From contig OY782781.1 in NCBI GenBank assembly GCA_963678315.1, forward strand, positions 2,752,001 to 2,816,000: 64,000 bases of DNA, in the 5' to 3' direction. Below the pieces are notes generated by a model that ran no database searches, had not been told where the DNA came from, and worked only from the letters and a program-made list of their open reading frames with translations. The stretch is from Candidatus Cloacimonadales bacterium. Its GTDB lineage: Bacteria; Cloacimonadota; Cloacimonadia; Cloacimonadales; JAFGVF01. Positions 2-39,593 of this stretch are shown one piece after another; position 1 is the first letter of the stretch; each line of letters starts with the position of its first letter. Position numbers and translations under genes: made by a program.

Positions 2-172
2 TTTGGAAGAAGAAACGACGGCTACGGTCGAGGTTACCGCCGTTTCGATTCATATGATGTAAATAATACACCAAATGCATATAATGATAAATCATACCTT
101 GAAAGTATGGTTAAATATCTAACAGATAGATTAACCTTCTTCAAGAATAAATTAAACGATAGTGATGACTAA
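2..172 (+). CDS. 3' end of probable DUF5320-like Gly/Arg-rich small protein (5'-truncated by window)
   Basis: Frame 2 reads FGRRNDGYGRGYRRF...SYLESMVKYLTDRLTFFKNKLNDSDD*. Gly/Arg-rich stretch plus a short C-terminal helix, upstream of MinD-ferredoxin and NifX genes. Confidence 0.55.
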   Translation, partial: FGRRNDGYGRGYRRFDSYDVNNTPNAYNDKSYLESMVKYLTDRLTFFKNKLNDSDD

Positions 173-9819: not shown

Positions 9820-12732
9820 ATGAAGAAAAAGACGATAATTATTGAATCAATAATCTTAGTTGTTTCAGCTGTTGTTTTGGCTTTATTCTTGGGTTTACCA
9901 CAAGTAATTGATCTTGACAAGAGGCAGAATAAGCAAAAGAACATTTCTCAGCTAACAGAGCTAACTATGAACACAAACAATTTCTTGGATAAGTACAAAT
10001 ATAGCATGACTGCTGATTTAGGAAGATTAAAAGAAAAAATGGAATATTCTCAGAAGCTATATGTACCTGGGGATAATGATTATAAGTATTTTGTGTACGG
10101 TGGTATTAAAAATAGTGATTTAAGATACTTAATCACTTATGACTTACTAGATATTTTGAATGCTTACCCATCACTTTCATCTAGTAATAAACTAAAATTC
10201 AATAATTCAATGAATGCTTACTTAATCACTGCTAAGAATAGATTAATGTATTCAGAAGATAGTGAAAAATATCAAGAATTTTTAAAAGCAATTGAGAATT
10301 TACAAGCAAACTTAGGTAATACTAAGTACTTCAGAAAAGCTCAATACTTATCTGATATTAAGAAGAGTTTAAGTAAAGAAAATGCTGCTCTTTATGATAA
10401 CAGAGTATCAATATTCTTACCATCATTGATTCAATCATTCTCTAATGAAGGTAAAAAGAATCTCCAAATTGGTATTGCATTTTATTTAGCTTATGTTAAT
10501 AGAATCAATTCAGGAACAGATATTAATGAAAGTTTTGTTGCTTTTTCAAATGACATTGATGAATTATCTAAATATTCAGCTTTAAAACAAGCTGCATCAA
10601 ACAATGTATTCCCAGAAGGAACTAGCAGCAAAGATATCACAACTATCTTTGATAATGAATTGTCTAATGTTGTATTAGCATCATGCAACTATCAAGATAG
10701 ATTGAACAAGGGTATCGTAGCAATCGGTACAAACGTAGCAGAAAACCCTAAAGATAAATTATCTTCTGAAACTGTACTATCCTACAATAATACTTCATTC
10801 CAAAAAGAAATTAATAACAAATTAGATCAGCTTATTGAACAATATCAAGGTGATTCAGACGGACTTGAAAATGCTATTGCTGCTATGGTAAATGACTACA
10901 AGATGAATGATATTAACAATCAAGTTGTCGATATTACTGAATCAATTTTTAATTACATGCAATATCAAGATTTTACTTATAAATCAATCTATAACAGTCA
11001 AAAAAGTTCTGTTGGAGCTAAGTTCAGTGAAAAGTATGTTGATATCTTCCATAAATACTTAATGAAGTATGACAAGCAATTAATCATTGAAAATCTTGCT
11101 AAAGAAATGGAATCTAAAAAACAAGATGCTCTTAAGAATTACAAATCTAGACTTAAAAACACTGAGTTGCTTCCTGTATTAAGAACACAAATGATGAATA
11201 CTCCTGATTTCTTAAACAAGTATTATTCTTCAAAGAAGTTTAAAACTTTAGTTGCAGACAACGAGAAAGATTTCATCAAAAATATTGAGAGAGAATTTGT
11301 TAATACTAAGAAAAAAGATTTAACTATTGAAAACATTAAAGCTAATGCTGATAACGATAAAATCATCTTTGATGATGATTATCTAAAGCAGTTAAAAGCA
11401 AACAAGACTTTATGGAATAATCAATATGATTATATTGTTTATCATGTAACTAAAGATAACCCTAAAGCTTCTATAAAAGGTATTGCAGCTGAAGTTATTG
11501 CTGATTCAACTAATATAATCAAAAACAACTCTAAATTAGTTAGTAGCTTACAAGATAAGATTGCAAAATCTAAAGAAGATTATGTTAAAAAAGATTATTC
11601 AAATTATAATGCTCTCTTATACTATAGTGATTATTGCACAAACCTAATTGCTAAGAATATTGAAATTACTAACAAGGCTGGTTATGATGGTTTTATTGAA
11701 GCTACTACAAAAACAGCTGACAATATTATTACTAACGATGAATATCCAGAGTTTACTGATGACTTCTTATCTCAAGTTAAAACTGCTATGAATGAAGTAA
11801 CCAAGAATTACATTATTGATGAAGGAAACATTCCAGCTGAATTATCTGCACAGTTAGACCAATTAAGTGCTCAATTAACTAACTATGATGCTTACTTGAA
11901 ATACGTGCAAGCTAAGAAAGTTAGTAGCAAGAAAAGATTCTCTAAAAATGAACTAGCTTTATATTCAGCAAGCGGCATTGATAAAAACAGTTTAGTATCT
12001 TACTATAACGGTAATATTCGTTACATTAAAGGTAAACTTGATAAAAAAGACATCTTTAGAAAGTTCTATAATACTCAAAAAAGCCTATTATTATCTAAAT
12101 ATAACGATGCGAAAAGATCTGCTACTGAAGAAGACTTTAATAAACTAGAAACTCAAATCAGTGCTTTTGTTAAGGCTAATAATCAAGATGATAGAGCAAA
12201 CTTCACTAACATCGTATCTCAAATGCTTAAAAATTATAATGAGTATATCAATAATGATTATAAATTCAATAATGCATTCAACTTTGATGGTCTTATTTCA
12301 GATTTAACAAGAGTTGAGAATAATATTAAGTTCTACCGTTCACTTGTTGAATTCCCTTATTATGACAAGGATGAATATTATCTTTTATATGGAAGATTCA
12401 TTGAACCTGAGCATGATAAAAAAGCTAAAACTTATGAAAAGATTGGAGTTAGTGCTGTAGTTTACACTGATATTCATAACTTTCCACAAGCTCATAAAGT
12501 TGTAGTAAGAGACCTTGGAAATACTAATGTAGATGTTCAATCATTACAATCTGCTTTAGAAGCTAAAATTAACTCATTAATCCAACAAAACAGATCTGAT
12601 TCATACGTTCATTATACAGATCCAGATTACAAGTTAACAAAGCAAGAAGCACAGGCTAAGAAAGACATTAGAGAAAAACTAACTACTGAGTTAAACAAAA
12701 TAGTAGATGACTTTGTTAAAGAAAATTACTAA
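9820..12732 (+). CDS. Large membrane-anchored hypothetical protein (970 aa)
   Basis: Long ORF, GGAG RBS, single N-terminal TM, Lys/Asn/Tyr-rich helical body, own terminator. Confidence 0.8.
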   Translation: MKKKTIIIESIILVVSAVVLALFLGLPQVIDLDKRQNKQKNISQLTELTMNTNNFLDKYKYSMTADLGRLKEKMEYSQKLYVPGDNDYKYFVYGGIKNSDLRYLITYDLLDILNAYPSLSSSNKLKFNNSMNAYLITAKNRLMYSEDSEKYQEFLKAIENLQANLGNTKYFRKAQYLSDIKKSLSKENAALYDNRVSIFLPSLIQSFSNEGKKNLQIGIAFYLAYVNRINSGTDINESFVAFSNDIDELSKYSALKQAASNNVFPEGTSSKDITTIFDNELSNVVLASCNYQDRLNKGIVAIGTNVAENPKDKLSSETVLSYNNTSFQKEINNKLDQLIEQYQGDSDGLENAIAAMVNDYKMNDINNQVVDITESIFNYMQYQDFTYKSIYNSQKSSVGAKFSEKYVDIFHKYLMKYDKQLIIENLAKEMESKKQDALKNYKSRLKNTELLPVLRTQMMNTPDFLNKYYSSKKFKTLVADNEKDFIKNIEREFVNTKKKDLTIENIKANADNDKIIFDDDYLKQLKANKTLWNNQYDYIVYHVTKDNPKASIKGIAAEVIADSTNIIKNNSKLVSSLQDKIAKSKEDYVKKDYSNYNALLYYSDYCTNLIAKNIEITNKAGYDGFIEATTKTADNIITNDEYPEFTDDFLSQVKTAMNEVTKNYIIDEGNIPAELSAQLDQLSAQLTNYDAYLKYVQAKKVSSKKRFSKNELALYSASGIDKNSLVSYYNGNIRYIKGKLDKKDIFRKFYNTQKSLLLSKYNDAKRSATEEDFNKLETQISAFVKANNQDDRANFTNIVSQMLKNYNEYINNDYKFNNAFNFDGLISDLTRVENNIKFYRSLVEFPYYDKDEYYLLYGRFIEPEHDKKAKTYEKIGVSAVVYTDIHNFPQAHKVVVRDLGNTNVDVQSLQSALEAKINSLIQQNRSDSYVHYTDPDYKLTKQEAQAKKDIREKLTTELNKIVDDFVKENY

Positions 12733-14157: not shown

Positions 14158-14208
14158 CCTTACTGACCTCCTTGAAAAAAAGCCGATTTTTCAAGGAGGC
14201 AAGTAAGG
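14158..14208. repeat. Family A palindrome copy 2
   Basis: ccttactgacctccttgaaaaaaagccgatttttcaaggaggcaagtaagg. Confidence 0.85.
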
Positions 14209-14323
14209 ATGAAGTAATAATCTTGTGTCTCTGAAAAGATTTTTCAAATCTCTTCAAGGCTAAGAGTTCATTTTGATAAATAAAAAACAAGTTTTATATC
14301 TAACGAATAATTGGAATACAAAC

Positions 14324-14359
14324 AAAAAGAGAGTATTGAATAATCAAAACTCTCTTTTT
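14324..14359. terminator. Bidirectional intrinsic terminator
   Basis: aaaaagagag...ctctcttttt between convergent genes. Confidence 0.7.
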
Positions 14360-14370
14360 ATATAATTTAT

Positions 14371-14531
14371 CCCAGATGATGCATTAGGATTGACGAAAAT
14401 AGTGCAGATTCTTTCAGCAAAATAGCTTACAGAATCGAAGCTTGAATAATATTTATTCTAGTTGAGATTATGGAAGTTATTCTTGCCAAATAATATCGTG
14501 CTATTTTTCAAGTCCTAGTGCATTATTTGGG
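14371..14531. mobile_element. MITE-like element, family D copy 1
   Basis: ~24-bp imperfect terminal inverted repeats (cccagatgatgcattaggattga / tcaagtcctagtgcattatttggg); core shared with 27402 and 55967. Confidence 0.7.
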
Positions 14532-34208: not shown

Positions 34209-34255
34209 ACCCTGAAAGGGTTATTCTTTCCAAAGCCCAGTACTTCAGTGCTGGG
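34209..34255. repeat. REP-like hairpin pair (family C) downstream of 5S
   Basis: accctgaaagggt and cccagtacttcagtgctggg. Confidence 0.65.
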
Positions 34256-34306
34256 TAATAATAAAGCCACAGCCCCTATCATACATAAAAAAAAGCAAGG
34301 GTCAAA

Positions 34307-34422
<116 letters not shown>

Positions 34423-34668
34423 TTTGACCCTTGCCAAAAATGATTTATATTAGTGTTTTTTACTTCATTTATTAATATGTAAGTTCGTAAGCAAGATGCT
34501 TACAATCCTTATTCATAATAAAATAAAGCTATAGAGTGTATAAAATTTAATAAGTAAGACGATCGAGTTATTAGTATCACTCGGCTGAACATATTGCTAT
34601 GCGTACACCTGTGACCTATATACATTGTAGTCTCCAATGACTCTAAGGGGAGATCTAATCTTGAGGTT

Positions 34669-34701
<33 letters not shown>

Positions 34702-34819
34702 GTTCCGAACTTAGCTACTCGGCAATGCAGCTGGCGCCACAACCGATACACCAGAGGTTCGTCCACACCGGTCCTCTCGTACTAAATGAAGATCCTCTCA
34801 AATCTCCTACGCCCACGAA

Positions 34820-34866
<47 letters not shown>

Positions 34867-34869
34867 ACT

Positions 34870-34920
<51 letters not shown>

Positions 34921-34976
34921 AGTTGAGCCGACATCGAGGTGCCAAACACCGCCGTCGATATGAACTCTTGGGCGGT

Positions 34977-35009
<33 letters not shown>

Positions 35010-35348
35010 TTTGAGCAACGGCCCTTCCATTCAGAACCGCCGGATCACTAAGACCTAGTTTCCTACCTGCTCGACCCGTCAGTCTCGCAGTCAAGCTCCC
35101 TTATACCTTTATGCTCTGCAGATGATTACCAACCATCTTGAGGGAACCTTGGTAAGCCTCCGTTACTTTTTAGGAGGCGACCGCCCCAGTCAAACCGCCC
35201 ACCTGGCAATGTCCGATATGTTTTCATATCGTTAGTAAATCAATTTAATAAGGGTGGTATTTCAACAACGGCTCATCACAATCTAGCGACCATGAGTCAT
35301 AGCCTCCCACCTATCCTACACATACTAAACCAATGTACAATGCCAAGA

Positions 35349-35379
<31 letters not shown>

Positions 35380-35446
35380 GTTCGCGGGTAAGCGGTATCT
35401 TCACCGCTATTACAATTTCACCGAGTTCCTGGTTGAGACAGTGCCC

Positions 35447-35534
<88 letters not shown>

Positions 35535-36242
35535 TGGGGCTTCATTTCAAAGCTTCGCAATTAAGCTAACCTCTCCATTTAACCTTCCAGCACCGGGCAG
35601 GTGTCAGTCTGTATACTTCGAATTACTTCTTCGCACAGACCTGTGTTTTTGATAAACAGTCGCTTGGGCCTCTTCACTGCGGCCACTTCATGCTTTGTAT
35701 TGTACATACTAACACTAACGTGGCACCCCTTCTCCCGAAGTTACGGGGTCATTTTGCCTAGTTCCTTAACCAGAATTCTCTCGAACACCTGAGGATACTC
35801 TCCTCGTCCACCTGTGTCGGTTTAGGGTACGGTCTGTTATAATTCAACGTTTAGAAGCTATTTCTCGGCAGTCCTATAAACACACTTTATTAGCTATGCT
35901 ATCGTCCTGTACCTCGGATTGACTCTACGGATTTGCCTATAAAGTCTCCTACATACATTCAACTACTAATCCAACAGTAGTCTGTGCAGCATTACTGCGT
36001 CACTCCATCACTCATTATAACAGGCCCAGGAATATTAACCTGGTTCCCATCAGCTGCGCCGTTCGGCATCGCCTTAGGGGCCGGCTTACCCTCAGAAGAT
36101 TATCTTTACTGAGGAAACCTTGGACTTGCGGTGTGTGAGTTTCTCACTCACATTATCGTTACTCATGCCAACATCGTCTCTTCCGAACGCTCCAACTAAC
36201 CTCACAGTTAATCTTCGTCGCTGTTCAGAATGCTCTTCTACC

Positions 36243-36558
36243 CCCAGCACTTATTTGTATTTTTTTTAGATTGTTTCAATACTATTACTTATACGTTCTT
36301 TCAAAAATCTCTTACTGTTTCCATGTTGTTTGAGTTTTTGCTCACGTTGTCTTGCATCTTTTTCTGAGTAGTATGCTTCATAATATACTAAATCCCATAT
36401 GTCGTTATTAGTATATCCTTTATGTTTACTATTATGTTGTTTAACTCGCTGTTGTAAATTTGATGTATATCCTATATACAATTTCTCTTTACTTCTACTT
36501 ATTAACACATAAACATAGTACATACGAACTCCTAAAAAAAATATAAATAAGTGCTGGG
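36243..36558 (-). mobile_element. Intervening sequence (IVS) replacing 23S helix 45
   Basis: AT-rich insert between conserved gaatgctcttctacc and ccacggcttcgg; arms 36243-36270 and 36531-36558 form a 28-bp stem with one mismatch. Confidence 0.9.
36266..36523 (-). CDS. GIY-YIG nuclease (85 aa, stand-alone UPF0213/SLX1-like) encoded inside the 23S IVS
   Basis: MYYVYVL...LYIGYTSNLQQRVKQHN...WDLVYYEAY.SEKDARQREQKLK; AGGAG 5 nt before ATG; same strand as the rRNA. Confidence 0.9.
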   Translation of the reverse strand: MYYVYVLISRSKEKLYIGYTSNLQQRVKQHNSKHKGYTNNDIWDLVYYEAYYSEKDARQREQKLKQHGNSKRFLKERISNSIETI

Positions 36559-36607
36559 CCACGGCTTCGGTTCTATGCTTTAGTCCCGATCATCTTCGGT
36601 GCATTAC

Positions 36608-36641
<34 letters not shown>

Positions 36642-37810
36642 TGGTGGCTGCTTCTAAGCCAACATCCTGGCTGTCTATGCAATTAAACATCCTTTCTCAC
36701 TTAGCATAAAATTGGGGACCTTAGCCGGTGGTCTGGGTTCTTTCCCTTTCGTCCGTGAAGCTTATCCCCCACGGGCTGTCTCCCAGGTATCATTTATAGG
36801 CATTCGGAGTTTGATTGGGTTCAGTAAACTGGTGAGTCCCCTAGCCCATTCAGTGCTCTACCTCCTATAAACTTTTGCCTGAGGCCATACCTAAATATGT
36901 TTCGAAGAGAACCAGCTATCTCCGGGTTTGTTTGGCCTTTCACCCCTACCCACAACTCATCCACTAATTTTTTAACATTAGTTGGTGCGGTCCTTCAGCA
37001 AGTGTTACCTTGCCTTCAACCTGGTCATGGGTAGATCACCCGGTTTCGGGTCTAATCCAATCAACTTAACGCGCTATTAACACTCGCTTTCGCTTCGGCT
37101 ACATTTCTGTAAAACTTAACCTCGCTGAATAGATTAACTCGTTGGCTCATTATGCAAAAGGCACGCCATCGCTATTAAGCTCTGACTGCTTGTAAACACA
37201 CGGTTTCAGGTTCTATTTCACTCCCCTTCTGGGGTCCTTTTCACCTTTCCCTCACGGTACTGTTTCACTATCGGTCACCAAACGTATTTAGCCTTACGAG
37301 ATGGTCCTCGCAGATTCAATCGGAATTTCTCGTGTTCCGACCTACTCGGGATGCTACTAAGATGGTAATCAATTTTAACTACAGGACTTTCACCTTCTCT
37401 GGTTGAACTTCCCAGATCAATTCGTCTATCAATTACTTCTCTACATTGTAGTCCCACAACCCCAGTTATTCAACTGGTTTAGGCTCTTCCCCGTTCGCTC
37501 GCCGCTACTTAGGAAATCGTTTTTACTTTCTCTTCCTGAGGGTACTTAGATGTTTCAGTTCCCCTCGTTCGCCTCCGGTAAACCGGATGACACAACATTA
37601 CTTGTGCCGGGTTGCCCCATTCGGATACCTCCGGGTCGAAGCTTGCTTACAGCTCACCGAAGATTTTCGCAGTTAACCACGTCCTTCATCGCCATTTGGT
37701 GCCAAGGCATCCACCATGTGCTCTTTTGCTCTTACAAAAAAAATCTTACACACTCTATATTACACTCTATTTACTGTTTAAACATCTTAGTTTCCTTTGA
37801 TAAAAAAATA

Positions 37811-38057: not shown

Positions 38058-39593
<1,536 letters not shown>

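Follow-up and report, generated by a model that had tools for sequence, protein, structure and literature searches.

Within the window, a 64,000-nucleotide stretch of a Candidatus Cloacimonadales genome, a 23S rRNA gene has the tip of its helix 45 replaced by an intervening sequence (IVS) that pairs end to end as a hairpin and carries an ORF for a predicted GIY-YIG nuclease (Table 1). We favour, with modest confidence, the view that this hairpin cassette belongs, as an autonomous member with a protein-coding gene, to a family of mobile hairpin IVSs, a family that would be removed from the transcript by RNase III and whose nuclease would act on the hairpin arms, with no homing to a fixed site. 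The features on which this view is based are described below, together with the other explanations that we considered.

Table 1. Features of the insert (window coordinates), followed by the sites of subfamily ORFs inside rRNA genes (E. coli coordinates; counts are for set 1 plus set 2).
Feature	Position	Strand	Basis or count
23S rRNA gene hosting the insert	34550..37737	(-)	Rfam LSU_rRNA_bacteria, 2779.7 bits, model 1-2925
316-nt IVS (hairpin cassette) in place of the helix 45 tip	36243..36558	(-)	E. coli 1164/1185
5' arm of the 28-bp stem	36531..36558	(-)	sequence, fold, motif statistics
Conserved arm base CCCAGCACTTA, outermost 11 nt of the 5' arm	36548-36558	(-)	
3' arm of the stem, with the final sense codon and stop codon inside and TAAGTGCTGGG at its end	36243..36270	(-)	
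TAAGTGCTGGG, terminal part of the 3' arm	36243-36253	(-)	
Shine-Dalgarno AGGAG, partly within the 5' arm at its inner end	36529..36533	(-)	read from sequence
Predicted 85-aa GIY-YIG nuclease ORF, SLX1/UPF0213 type, TAA included	36266..36523	(-)	Pfam, PDB, AF2, Foldseek
Subfamily site, 23S	540/553		35 ORFs
Subfamily site, 23S	1854-66/1875		26 ORFs
Subfamily site, 23S	1164/1185		15 ORFs
Subfamily site, 23S	about 270		10 ORFs
Subfamily site, 23S	1704/1770		7 ORFs
Subfamily site, 23S	2789/2821		6 ORFs
Subfamily site, 16S	about 66-72		12 ORFs
Subfamily site, 16S	452/473		4 ORFs
Subfamily site, 16S	1408/1492		3 ORFs

The insert and its place in the 23S rRNA gene

A local cmscan alignment placed the extra sequence in the loop of a hairpin at LSU model positions 1205-1226, and blastn against E. 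coli K-12 rrlH located the break in the 23S sequence between E. coli positions 1164 and 1185, which corresponds to helix 45. Both placements agree with a preliminary description of this DNA, which had put the insert in helix 45 and had given it a 28-bp stem with one A.C mismatch. That stem is also recovered here: its 28 positions comprise 26 Watson-Crick pairs, one G.U pair and the A.C mismatch. The predicted fold of the insert has an energy of −76 kcal/mol (RNAfold; z −6.19), and none of 100 shuffled sequences gave an equally good fold. The long stem would lengthen helix 45, and the cassette would be transcribed together with the rrn operon.

The non-coding part of the insert amounts to 58 nt only, and Rfam scans (E<=1) matched no ribozyme or intron family, the matches being LSU and a single sRNA that scored below threshold (24.7 bits, where the gathering score is 65.2). 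These figures uphold the earlier statement that the insert has no room for a ribozyme. The insert resembles helix-45 IVSs in that it replaces the tip of the helix, pairs its ends in a long stem and varies among rrn copies and relatives; it falls outside the introns of groups I and II with homing endonucleases, having no ribozyme core.

The ORF and its predicted product

The ORF begins with an ATG that follows the sequence AGGAG at a distance of 5 nt, in the region of the loop and arm, and its TAA stop codon (36266-36268) lies within the 3' arm. Reading the identical frame from an upstream GTG would give a protein of 98 aa; homologs start at the ATG, which gives 85 aa. The assignment of this ORF to the GIY-YIG nucleases, which had been made by eye in the preliminary description, was substantiated by a profile search: the match to Pfam GIY-YIG (PF01541) has an E-value of 9.4e-17 and a score of 61.5 bits (the cut-off being 22.6), and extends over profile positions 1-74 of 78. 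The four-helix-bundle IVP family (S23p) was absent among the five Pfam families listed for the ORF at E<=1.

Sixteen columns are invariant in 38 sequences of the family, among them Y5, Y16, G18, R26 and R60-E61, and the residues V4-Y5-V6, Y16-I17-G18, R26, H30 and R60-E61 are all invariant or nearly so. The ORF described here holds every family-invariant residue; by analogy with UvrC and I-TevI, we take the GIY-YIG residues among them (the GIY and YIG strands, the conserved Arg and, in a later helix, a metal-binding Glu) to have the corresponding catalytic roles. An AF2 model of the protein (pLDDT 91.2) contains strands at residues 2-9, 15-20 and 43-51 and helices at residues 23-30, 54-66 and 68-77, which form a three-stranded sheet flanked by helices, as in the GIY-YIG superfamily. 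Foldseek matched the model to SLX1, UPF0213 and UvrC, of which the nuclease domains of SLX1 were nearest (probability 1.00, TM 0.57-0.69); I-TevI, at an E-value of 0.9, ranked far below SLX1 at 0.005. The best PDB sequence matches were 1zg2 (2.3e-11) and 1ywl (1.5e-07).

The SLX1/UPF0213 branch (BH0048, EF2693) supplies the best PDB matches in both sequence and fold, and its bacterial members are similar in size to the protein described here. The UPF0213 structures are titled as hypothetical proteins in the PDB, and we know of no reported link between the UPF0213 proteins and rRNA genes. SLX1 itself carries a zinc-finger domain at its C terminus and acts together with a partner, SLX4. The 85-aa protein is a bare catalytic domain with no DNA-binding module, which sets it apart from SLX1 as a structure-specific endonuclease. 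Judging by the model, it is predicted to be a minimal GIY-YIG nuclease whose nearest counterparts are of the SLX1/UPF0213 type.

The ratio dN/dS had a median of 0.125 over 52 pairs of family ORFs, which are not independent of one another, and was below 0.5 in 98% of the pairs. By this measure, the ORFs of the family are under purifying selection. This bears on the idea that the ORF is a decaying passenger, no longer expressed or needed at this locus (like S23p in the Coxiella IVS), within an insert that is rendered harmless by its excision. According to the available text of PMC4990558, no product of the helix-45 IVS ORF is made in Coxiella in vivo, and that ORF is undergoing reductive evolution, which is also a caution for translation in the present case. 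In-frame stops in three related copies from the same phylum point in the same direction. We nevertheless consider decay decidedly unlikely here, given the strong AGGAG at a 5-nt spacing from the ATG, the retention of all the invariant residues, the family-wide dN/dS of 0.125, and the fact that both copies of the ORF in this genome are intact and have a single synonymous difference.

Alleles among rrn copies and in sequencing runs

The genome is closed, in one contig of 2.99 Mb, and contains four rrn copies. Comparison of these copies, which the preliminary description had suggested along with the dN/dS analysis given above, revealed two long and two short inserts: two copies contain the ORF insert (in versions that differ by the one synonymous base), and the other two contain a 110-nt ORF-less insert that has a 14-bp stem base in common with it. 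Beyond the four rrn operons, no further copies of the extended arm were found in the genome. The host also possesses an RNase III gene, rnc (246.9 bits, above the cut-off).

Misassembly had been named in the preliminary description as a possible source of the insert, and rRNA operons, being repeats, are prone to it. A unitig from run X15 spans both junctions (36227-36574) without a mismatch, at a depth of 57.9 as compared to approximately 123 in the flanks, and an alternative joint from 36256 to 36545 has a depth of 61; these depths fit a division of the four copies into two and two. The insert is also found in a second run, X16, with one base different from the sequence in the window. Together with the presence of two copies in a closed one-contig genome, and of the same architecture in more than 100 independent related loci, these results make an assembly or chimera artefact practically out of the question.

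Three helix-45 alleles are present on identical flanks in run X16: the normal tip (17 nt between 36242 and 36559), a short insert, and the ORF insert. Metatranscriptome contigs from run X1 matched the flanks without a mismatch and had a depth of 0 inside the insert. The same contigs contain an IVS-less joint and may stem from strains that do not carry the insert, so that excision and absence would give the same depth of 0 in this run. RNA reads from run X21 (oligo-dT) matched within the conserved stretch 36610-36680 only, at 90-95% likeness.

Conserved arms on coding and ORF-less hairpins

The cassettes from all sites and phyla have an arm base in common, CCCAGCAC(C/T)TA...TA(G/A)GTGCTGGG. The paired motif accompanies 39 of 86 ORFs in one set and 51 of 85 in another, with both arms exact in 8 and 9 cases respectively, compared with 123 of 20000 random placements. 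An unbiased count of 6-mers identified CCCAGC upstream (37 of 150 ORFs, against a background of 1.7%) and GTGCTG downstream (30 of 150, against 1%), and a scan recovered the motif as the base of a hairpin in 136 cases, as compared to 0-22 cases for 12 permuted motifs. Arms that match exactly were seen in at least six phyla, both at non-rRNA loci and at five sites within rRNA. The stop codon opens the 3' arm in 57 of 107 related cassettes. The non-Watson-Crick pairs in the stems, read on the sense strand, are G.U in 26 cases and A.C in 11; because G.U exceeds A.C, the arms appear to be constrained at the RNA level, instead of or besides serving as a DNA site.

Hairpins with the same arms are also found with no ORF inside. 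We counted 55 of these, between 32 and 149 nt in length, in 553 kb of the fetched loci; most of them occupy IVS sites in the same operons. In a sister genus, ORF-less helix-45 inserts measure approximately 210-255 nt and have the variant arm CCGCCACTCATTTAT, while other rrn copies there have a normal helix 45; one genome (G001) contains ORF-less inserts and has no match to the ORF. Neither the short insert of the present genome nor any of six sister-genus inserts contained an ORF remnant (hmmsearch E>1), and the ORF-less interiors, aligned to the ORF, scored 18, where shuffled sequences averaged 19.9; there is therefore no sign that these inserts descended from ORF-bearing cassettes. Inspection by eye of the listed 6-nt flanks, which belong to the host helix, revealed no direct repeat of the kind left by target-site duplication. 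As in transposons and MITEs with terminal inverted repeats, those repeats are conserved in coding and non-coding copies alike.

The arms invite a reading in which the GIY-YIG protein is an enzyme of RNA, recognising the arm base there and cutting hairpins from pre-rRNA or helping to do so. By acting in trans on ORF-less inserts, such an enzyme would make the family independent of host processing enzymes. Within one operon, hairpins with and without an ORF have the same arm sequence, which is consistent with this proposal, as is the bias to G.U, which favours pairing in RNA. Known GIY-YIG enzymes, including SLX1 and UvrC as the nearest structures, act on DNA, however, and G001 retains its ORF-less inserts with no match to the ORF. 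The host has an RNase III gene of its own, and RNase III is enough for the known IVSs (available text of PMC4990558). We regard an RNA-level role of this kind as very unlikely.

Distribution of the subfamily

We fetched 159 loci of the ORF subfamily, 79 from a genome collection and 80 from a metagenome collection. The ORF lies inside an rRNA gene in 109 of these, and in the sense orientation in every one of the 109. One rRNA gene of the same orientation is present on both sides of the ORF in 51 of the 79 loci from the genome collection, on one side in 4 and on neither in 24; for the 80 metagenome loci, an rRNA gene is found on both sides in 58, on one side in 8 and on neither in 14. The ORFs occupy approximately nine helix tips of 23S and 16S rRNA (Table 1) in many phyla, CPR not alone. 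Cultured strains with members of the subfamily include Methylomicrobium sp. wino1, Methylotuvimicrobium sp. KM1, Deferribacter thermophilus and Lagierella massiliensis.

Of 232 genomes from the host's phylum, 7 (counting that of the window) contain the subfamily at E<=1e-20; all of these copies are within 23S, and three have in-frame stops. None of the 11 other genomes of the host's family contains it. No name is attached to 107 of the 120 homologs listed. Viral contigs yielded seven weak or partial relatives, among which the sole full-length match has 33% identity, and no known RNA family was matched at E<=0.1 around the non-rRNA cassettes of Omnitrophota. Of 19 GIY-YIG paralogs at a greater distance (33-49% identity), 18 reach a helix score of at most 10, and the other one has an unrelated sequence; as far as these sequences indicate, such paralogs lack the conserved arms. 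We also considered whether two ORFs within one 23S gene are always sisters, and rejected this, since they are mutual best matches in only 3 of 12 intra-locus pairs.

The preliminary description had suggested that the element may spread between rrn copies through gene conversion triggered by the nuclease. A classical homing endonuclease would cut IVS-less helix-45 rDNA at a specific sequence, and repair would copy the insert into the break. An IVS-less allele does exist on identical flanks in runs X16 and X1, rrn copies differ from one another in insert state, and the GIY-YIG proteins are a recognised homing-endonuclease family (main text of PMC11270868). The nearest relatives of this ORF (55-59% identity), however, are found not only at H45 but also at 23S 1854/1889, ~653, ~270, 530/564 and 1703 and at non-rRNA loci. 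A protein tree (a quick tree, with 5 of 77 inner branches well supported) needs 37 changes of site against a minimum of 13. The protein, at 85 aa, has no DNA-binding domain and is closer in fold to SLX1 than to I-TevI, and two ORF-less inserts persist in the same genome. Homing to a fixed helix-45 target is highly improbable in the face of these results, and this part of the earlier proposal is not retained.

The distribution bears equally on a reading in which the nuclease is host-serving or neutral cargo. The insert would then be an ordinary IVS processed by RNase III, in which the nuclease gains strong, growth-coupled expression and serves the cell (for example by tending rDNA or stalled forks) in a way unrelated to spread, with the arms kept only as a signal for processing or stability. 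Expression tied to ribosome synthesis, which the preliminary description had offered as an alternative, is a possibility here. Purifying selection on the ORF and the sense orientation of all 109 rRNA-internal loci speak for such cargo; the excess of G.U over A.C suggests RNA-level selection on the stem, and the predicted SLX1-like fold is suggestive in that yeast Slx1-Slx4 is reportedly linked to rDNA maintenance. Against this stand the very patchy occurrence (0 of 11 other family genomes and 7 of 232 phylum genomes), the restriction of the insert to two of four rrn copies, the existence of pseudogenised copies, and the presence of the same arm sequence in phyla that are far apart and differ in their RNase III enzymes, as well as in non-rRNA loci. 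We consider a cargo role unlikely on this evidence.

Discussion

GIY-YIG ORFs within non-intron insertion sequences have been described in rRNA genes of CPR bacteria (J Bacteriol 2024, PMC11270868, main text), and the insert described here contains a GIY-YIG ORF in a non-intron rRNA insert as defined in that text. The CPR inserts are similar in that they carry GIY-YIG ORFs in both 16S and 23S, resemble introns of neither group I nor group II and occupy less conserved sites; they differ in host, the present one being outside CPR and having a 2.99 Mb genome with four rrn operons. The authors of that study doubt homing as the means of spread (PMC11270868, main text). The words 'inverted repeat', 'palindrom' and 'hairpin' are absent from its main text, and for that reason we take it that conserved arms, ORF-less partners and a spread beyond CPR are not described in that main text. 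In the open full-text literature, we found neither GIY-YIG rRNA inserts outside CPR nor conserved arms on such inserts.

The helix-45 IVS of Coxiella burnetii, a few hundred nt in length with one small ORF (S23p), is the closest parallel in position: it too lies in helix 45, is excised by RNase III to leave pieces of ~1.2 and ~1.7 kb, and is considered selfish and horizontally acquired (available text of PMC4990558). Its ORF is a decaying four-helix S23p/IVP, whereas the one described here encodes a predicted GIY-YIG protein under apparent purifying selection (same text for Coxiella). GIY-YIG genes of the I-TevI type, found in introns, have the catalytic fold in common with our ORF and are likewise selfish genes within a host gene that are removed at the RNA level; they differ from it in that no ribozyme, DNA-binding domain or fixed site is found here, and in the Foldseek values given above.

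Classical ORF-less IVSs processed by RNase III are known at helices 25 and 45 in Salmonella, Campylobacter, Leptospira and others (cited in PMC11270868). They are similar to the inserts described here in occupying the same two sites, in having long terminal stems, in varying among rrn copies and strains, and in leaving a fragmented 23S; the CCCAGCAC arm base is found in ORF-less inserts of this genome and of the sister genus. Neisseria Correia elements are MITEs with transcribed inverted repeats that are cut by RNase III, and together with REPIN-RAYT pairs they offer a second comparison, consisting of short hairpin repeats in which non-autonomous copies occur beside a protein-coding relative flanked by the same repeats. 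They differ in that their proteins belong to another family; here, no target-site duplication was seen, and the copies are located almost only at rRNA helix tips.

On our preferred reading, that of a mobile hairpin-IVS family, a cassette consists of complementary arms with a conserved base, and a short loop with a ribosome-binding site and an ORF for a nuclease of ~85 aa. Host RNase III would cut the stem, leaving the 23S rRNA as pieces of ~1.18 and ~1.69 kb and setting free a stem-closed RNA of ~300 nt that would work as the mRNA of the nuclease; both the excision and the translation of the cassette we infer. The nuclease may then act on the arms, or on structures formed by them, and so keep or spread the cassette, and hairpins that have these arms and no ORF would be non-autonomous relatives of it. 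The conserved arms, the many sites, the patchy distribution, the pseudogenised copies and the polymorphism among rrn copies all fit a selfish element, in line with the earlier description.

Several observations count against this reading. The two ORF-less inserts of the same genome, with their identical arm bases, stand unconverted beside the ORF-bearing copies, and G001 has ORF-less inserts yet no match to the ORF. To these are added the flanks with no visible target-site duplication, the excess of G.U over A.C pairs, the ORF-less interiors with no ORF remnant, the weakly supported protein tree and the Coxiella ORF that is reported not to be made in vivo. We also know of no GIY-YIG protein that acts as a prokaryotic transposase.

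Bacterial rRNA intervening sequences and fragmented 23S rRNAs have been known for decades, with no agreed origin or route of spread. The locus described here and its approximately 170 relatives suggest, as far as sequence comparison goes, that a large share of rRNA inserts belong to one family with conserved arms, that some members of this family encode their own nuclease, and that the family is common well outside CPR. Since it occurs in cultured strains, the question can be addressed at the bench. Standard annotation pipelines are not known to make ORF calls inside rRNA genes, and ORFs at such positions are likely an annotation blind spot. The predicted nuclease, as a structure-selective enzyme of 85 aa, may also be of practical interest.

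A broader proposal, which we put forward only tentatively, is that the hairpin cassettes and their ORF-less look-alikes constitute an unrecognised class of mobile elements, defined by arms of the form CCCAGCAC...GTGCTGGG and, in autonomous copies, by a minimal SLX1-like GIY-YIG nuclease, their sole protein, that reads the arm hairpin and not the host sequence. If so, this class would settle the helix tips of rRNA and of a few other structured-RNA genes in most bacterial phyla, and many puzzling rRNA intervening sequences, along with the rRNA fragmentation that results from them, would be footprints of this family.

A nuclease-encoding hairpin replaces the tip of 23S helix 45

We located the insert within its rrn operon by two alignments (see table). 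When the 23S gene was aligned locally with Rfam's LSU model, the hairpin of model positions 1205-1226 had ~300 additional bases in its loop, and blastn against E. coli K-12 rrlH put the break in the match at E. coli 1164/1185, which is helix 45. The two complementary ends of the insert (its arms) form a 28-position stem, in which 26 pairs are Watson-Crick and the other two are a G.U and an A.C, and the fold (z = -6.19) was matched in stability by 0 of 100 shuffles. The loop contains, in order, AGGAG, 5 nt, ATG and an 85-codon frame whose TAA stop lies within the 3' arm. A profile search identified this frame as a GIY-YIG protein (Pfam, E 9.4e-17), and Rfam at E<=1 returned no intron or other ribozyme in the insert. 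The preliminary description of a GIY-YIG ORF carried on a 28-bp stem at this site, with no ribozyme core, held in every detail checked.

The host genome, one contig of 2,988,751 bases (32.8% G+C), has four rrn copies. Two carry the 316-nt insert, with one synonymous difference between them (GAA/GAG, codon 54), and the other two carry an ORF-less 110-nt insert, a hairpin in its own right (z -5.27) whose outer 14 bp of stem (CCCAGCACTTATTT) are common to both insert types. Misassembly was considered as an explanation and is contradicted by two sequencing runs: a unitig of run X15 spans 36227-36574 with no mismatch, and run X16 has the insert too. The X15 depths (57.9 for this unitig, 61 for the alternative joint and ~123 for the flanks) are consistent with two plus two rrn copies. 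X16 contains three helix-45 alleles with identical flanks (window 36242/36559), namely an ORF insert with one base different, corresponding to the second genomic copy (depth 5.2), the short 110-nt insert (depth 24) and a normal 17-nt helix tip (depth 24.9), which suggests that the population is mixed or has diverged recently. The insert is thus genuine, and the site is polymorphic. The normal 17-nt allele further indicates that the cassette, as we term the insert, replaces the entire terminal hairpin of helix 45, so that the CCCAGCAC stem is part of the insert and not of the host helix.

A separate 20-nt hairpin, CCCAGCACUGAAGUACUGGG, follows the 5S gene at a distance of ~50 nt (window 34236-34255), with further copies at positions 1145044, 1145246 and 2715082 of the host contig (G000:C1), all near rrn operons. 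A relic, a terminator and chance are all possible explanations of this hairpin, whose base is similar to the cassette arm.

Features of the window's rrn operon, and rRNA sites (E. coli coordinates) with the number of family ORFs inside, summed over the genome and metagenome collections; these counts are not independent, some loci being duplicates from one genome or related samples. Helix names are those we take to correspond
Feature	Coordinates	Strand	Remarks
16S rRNA	38058-39593	minus	
23S rRNA	34550-37737	minus	
5S rRNA	34306-34422	minus	
Two tRNAs		minus	
Insert, 316 nt	36243-36558	minus	starts CCCAGCACUUAUUUAUAUUUUUUUUAGG, finishes UCUAAAAAAAAUACAAAUAAGUGCUGGG (rRNA sense)
23S site	~270		10 ORFs
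23S site (H25)	540/553		35 ORFs
23S site (H45)	1164/1185		15 ORFs, plus the window's own
23S site (H63)	1704/1770		7 ORFs
23S site (H68)	1854-66/1875		26 ORFs
23S site (H98)	2789/2821		6 ORFs
16S site (h6)	~66-72		12 ORFs
16S site (h17)	452/473		4 ORFs
16S site (h44)	1408/1492		3 ORFs

The ORF family occupies many rRNA sites in many phyla

The proteins nearest to the ORF (61-64% identity) are found mainly on short metagenome contigs. Two collections were sampled with the peptide pattern Wx[LYC]VYYEAY. Among 79 distinct loci from genomes (the best 80 of 255 relatives), 51 ORFs lie inside one rRNA gene in the same orientation, four have rRNA on one side only and 24 have none, an absence of rRNA upheld by an Rfam check; the corresponding figures for metagenomes (the best 80 of at least 598) are 58, 8 and 14. 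The sole rRNA-adjacent ORF in opposite orientation (L068) is beside a 16S gene, not inside it. By record titles, the hosts span Pseudomonadota, Thermodesulfobacteriota, Planctomycetota, Verrucomicrobiota, Acidobacteriota, Bacillota, Synergistota, Deferribacterota, Spirochaetota, Cloacimonadota, Actinomycetota and many lineages of CPR, the bacterial group with earlier-published GIY-YIG rRNA inserts, and include four cultured strains. The H25 cassette of a Desulfobacterales MAG (L044) recurs in a bacterial-type 23S fragment on a 1484-nt contig (L042) assigned to a Desulfurococcales archaeon MAG; the archaeal assignment is probably a binning error.

At ten loci a single 23S gene holds two ORFs, and another locus has two outside rRNA. 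Mutual best matches account for only 3 of 12 such intra-locus pairs, so that most double occupancies are separate arrivals. The ORF tree, itself weak, shows clustering by site and host yet is far from site-faithful: it requires 37 site changes, where shuffling gives a mean of 50.7 and the minimum would be 13.

Other settings were also observed. In a Peribacteria MAG (L073:2501-3078), a GIY-YIG ORF is immediately followed by a match to bacterial RNase P RNA (153 bits). In five loci from Omnitrophota and one other MAG (L054, L065, L076, L081, L084), the cassette lies outside rRNA, where it caps the central helix of a conserved RNA of several hairpins just upstream of a gene. On either side of that helix is a hairpin with a CUUACGG/CCGUAAG stem, and an AAUGAG/CUCAUU helix closes the structure. 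This RNA has no Rfam match at E<=0.1 and may be an undescribed structured RNA.

Closer to the host, which is a member of Cloacimonadota and not of CPR, no close ORF homolog was found among 40 relatives (best match 46% identity, <=39% within the family). Several genomes of the sister genus carry ORF-less helix-45 inserts of ~210-255 nt, with stems that start CCGCCACTCATTTATAAA, in some rrn copies and a normal helix tip of 16-20 nt in others. No ORF remnant was detectable in these inserts or in the host's own short insert. Across the phylum, the ORF subfamily (E<=1e-20) occurs in 7 of 232 genomes, host included, a lower bound because draft genomes often lack rRNA genes. All copies are within 23S, at ~270, 540/553 or 1164/1185, and three (L210, L215, L224) have in-frame stops; the genome with L224 as its second rrn copy has an intact first copy, L214. 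A different small GIY-YIG subfamily (39-49% identity; L216, L218-L222, L226) occurs in several Cloacimonadota families, mostly one (f17), adjoining, and in several loci sitting between, tRNA-3'-half-like repeats (T-arm plus CCA end); L226 has two such ORFs in tandem.

Conserved arms are shared with ORF-less partners

We searched for helices between the 70 nt before the start and the 60 nt after the stop of 149 non-identical ORFs, and found one (score >=10) at 107, with a median length of 16; in 57 of these 107 the 3' arm starts with the stop codon itself. The arm base, the conserved outer part of the arms (5' CCCAGCAC(C/T)TA, 3' TA(G/A)GTGCTGGG), is similar across sites and phyla, and variants keep the pairing (CCCCGCAC/GTGCGGGG, CCCGGCAC/GTGCCGGG, CCAAGCAC/GTGCTTGG). 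Complementary arms with at most two changes each flank 39/86 and 51/85 ORFs (both arms exact at 8 and 9), against 123/20000 random placements. An unbiased count likewise ranked CCCAGC (37/150), CCAGCA (34/150) and CAGCAC (33/150) first among upstream 6-mers (background 1.3-1.7%), and GTGCTG (30/150) and TGCTGG (29/150) first downstream (background ~1%). The loci contain 136 hairpins with the motif at their base, against 0-22 for twelve same-letter permutations, the higher of which overlap real arm variants. Exact arms were found at H45 (the window locus), H98, H25, h6 and ~270, and at non-rRNA loci of Omnitrophota and Saccharibacteria. Non-Watson-Crick pairs in the stems are more often G.U (26) than A.C (11), which argues for constraint on the arms at the RNA level.

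More distant small GIY-YIG genes are without such arms. The host contig has three free-standing paralogs (11365-11589, 14193-14438 and 2929077-2929280; 41-48% identity), and no hairpin arms lie beside the two with flanks examined. Two of the three adjoin IS21-like genes, with 14193-14438 directly downstream of an IstB-type ATPase ORF.

The same arm motif also closes 55 ORF-less hairpins of 32-149 nt in the 553 kb of loci, most of them elsewhere in the same rRNA operons, at further insert sites. They include hairpins at H45 (L043, L047), at H25 (L049), at ~270 and H25 of a locus with the ORF in its H45 (L062), and at three sites of L168. A Methylococcales-type H25 insert of ~500 nt (L063, L072, L074, L090, L102, L170) comprises three tandem modules, an ORF unit between two ORF-less hairpins of ~100 nt that both carry conserved arms; only the upstream ORF-less hairpin was detected in the H25 inserts of L183 and L196. 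The short and long inserts that coexist in the host conform to this pattern of partners.

The protein resembles SLX1 nuclease domains

The ORFs are under purifying selection: among 52 pairs that share 70-99.5% nucleotide identity, median dN/dS is 0.125 (0.06-0.15 for pairs inside rRNA). An alignment of 38 sequences has 16 invariant columns, including Y5, Y16, G18, R26 and R60-E61. The best PDB relatives by sequence, 1zg2 and 1ywl, are UPF0213 proteins titled hypothetical. The best fold matches of the AlphaFold model (pLDDT 91.2) are SLX1 nuclease domains (probability 1.00, TM 0.57-0.69), with UvrC and I-TevI far below. The protein is therefore predicted to consist of a catalytic domain alone, placed in the structure-selective branch of the GIY-YIG superfamily, and not to be a homing enzyme of the I-TevI type.

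Relation to published inserts and a possible mechanism

ORF-bearing helix-45 IVSs (intervening sequences) and GIY-YIG genes in rRNA inserts are already known, the latter from CPR (PMC11270868). That 2024 survey has all GIY-YIG proteins encoded by inserts unlike either intron class, which seem to stand outside spread by homing, and its main text makes no mention of inverted repeats, palindromes or hairpins. The non-intron setting is the same here, in a host outside CPR. No description of GIY-YIG rRNA inserts outside CPR, or of conserved arms, was found in full-text literature that mostly excludes subscription journals. The new elements thus appear to be the cassette with its conserved arms, the ORF-less partners, the breadth beyond CPR and the SLX1-like enzyme.

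The cassette is sense-oriented within 23S, its long stem prolongs helix 45, its loop provides a ribosome-binding site (AGGAG) while the stop codon falls in the stem, and the host carries an RNase III gene. By analogy with the Coxiella helix-45 IVS (PMC4990558), RNase III would cut the stem, the ribosome would keep its 23S as two pieces of ~1179 and 1693 nt, and the released stem-closed RNA might be translated. The nuclease may then act on the arms, or on structures formed by them, and so maintain or spread the cassette; we infer this from arms common to coding and non-coding copies, the many sites, and the patchy and decaying copies. Counted against such an action are the excess of G.U over A.C in stems (26 to 11), the lack of a target-site duplication in the cassette flanks (by eye), the two ORF-less inserts left unconverted in the host genome, a relative with ORF-less inserts and no ORF match, and the weak tree, with only 3/12 intra-locus pairs mutual best matches. 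From the earlier selfish-element reading we retain a ribozyme-free selfish cassette; its homing to a fixed site is not supported. We offer only tentatively, and judge somewhat improbable, the broader proposal that the cassette represents a mobile-element class of its own, one that may account for many bacterial rRNA intervening sequences.
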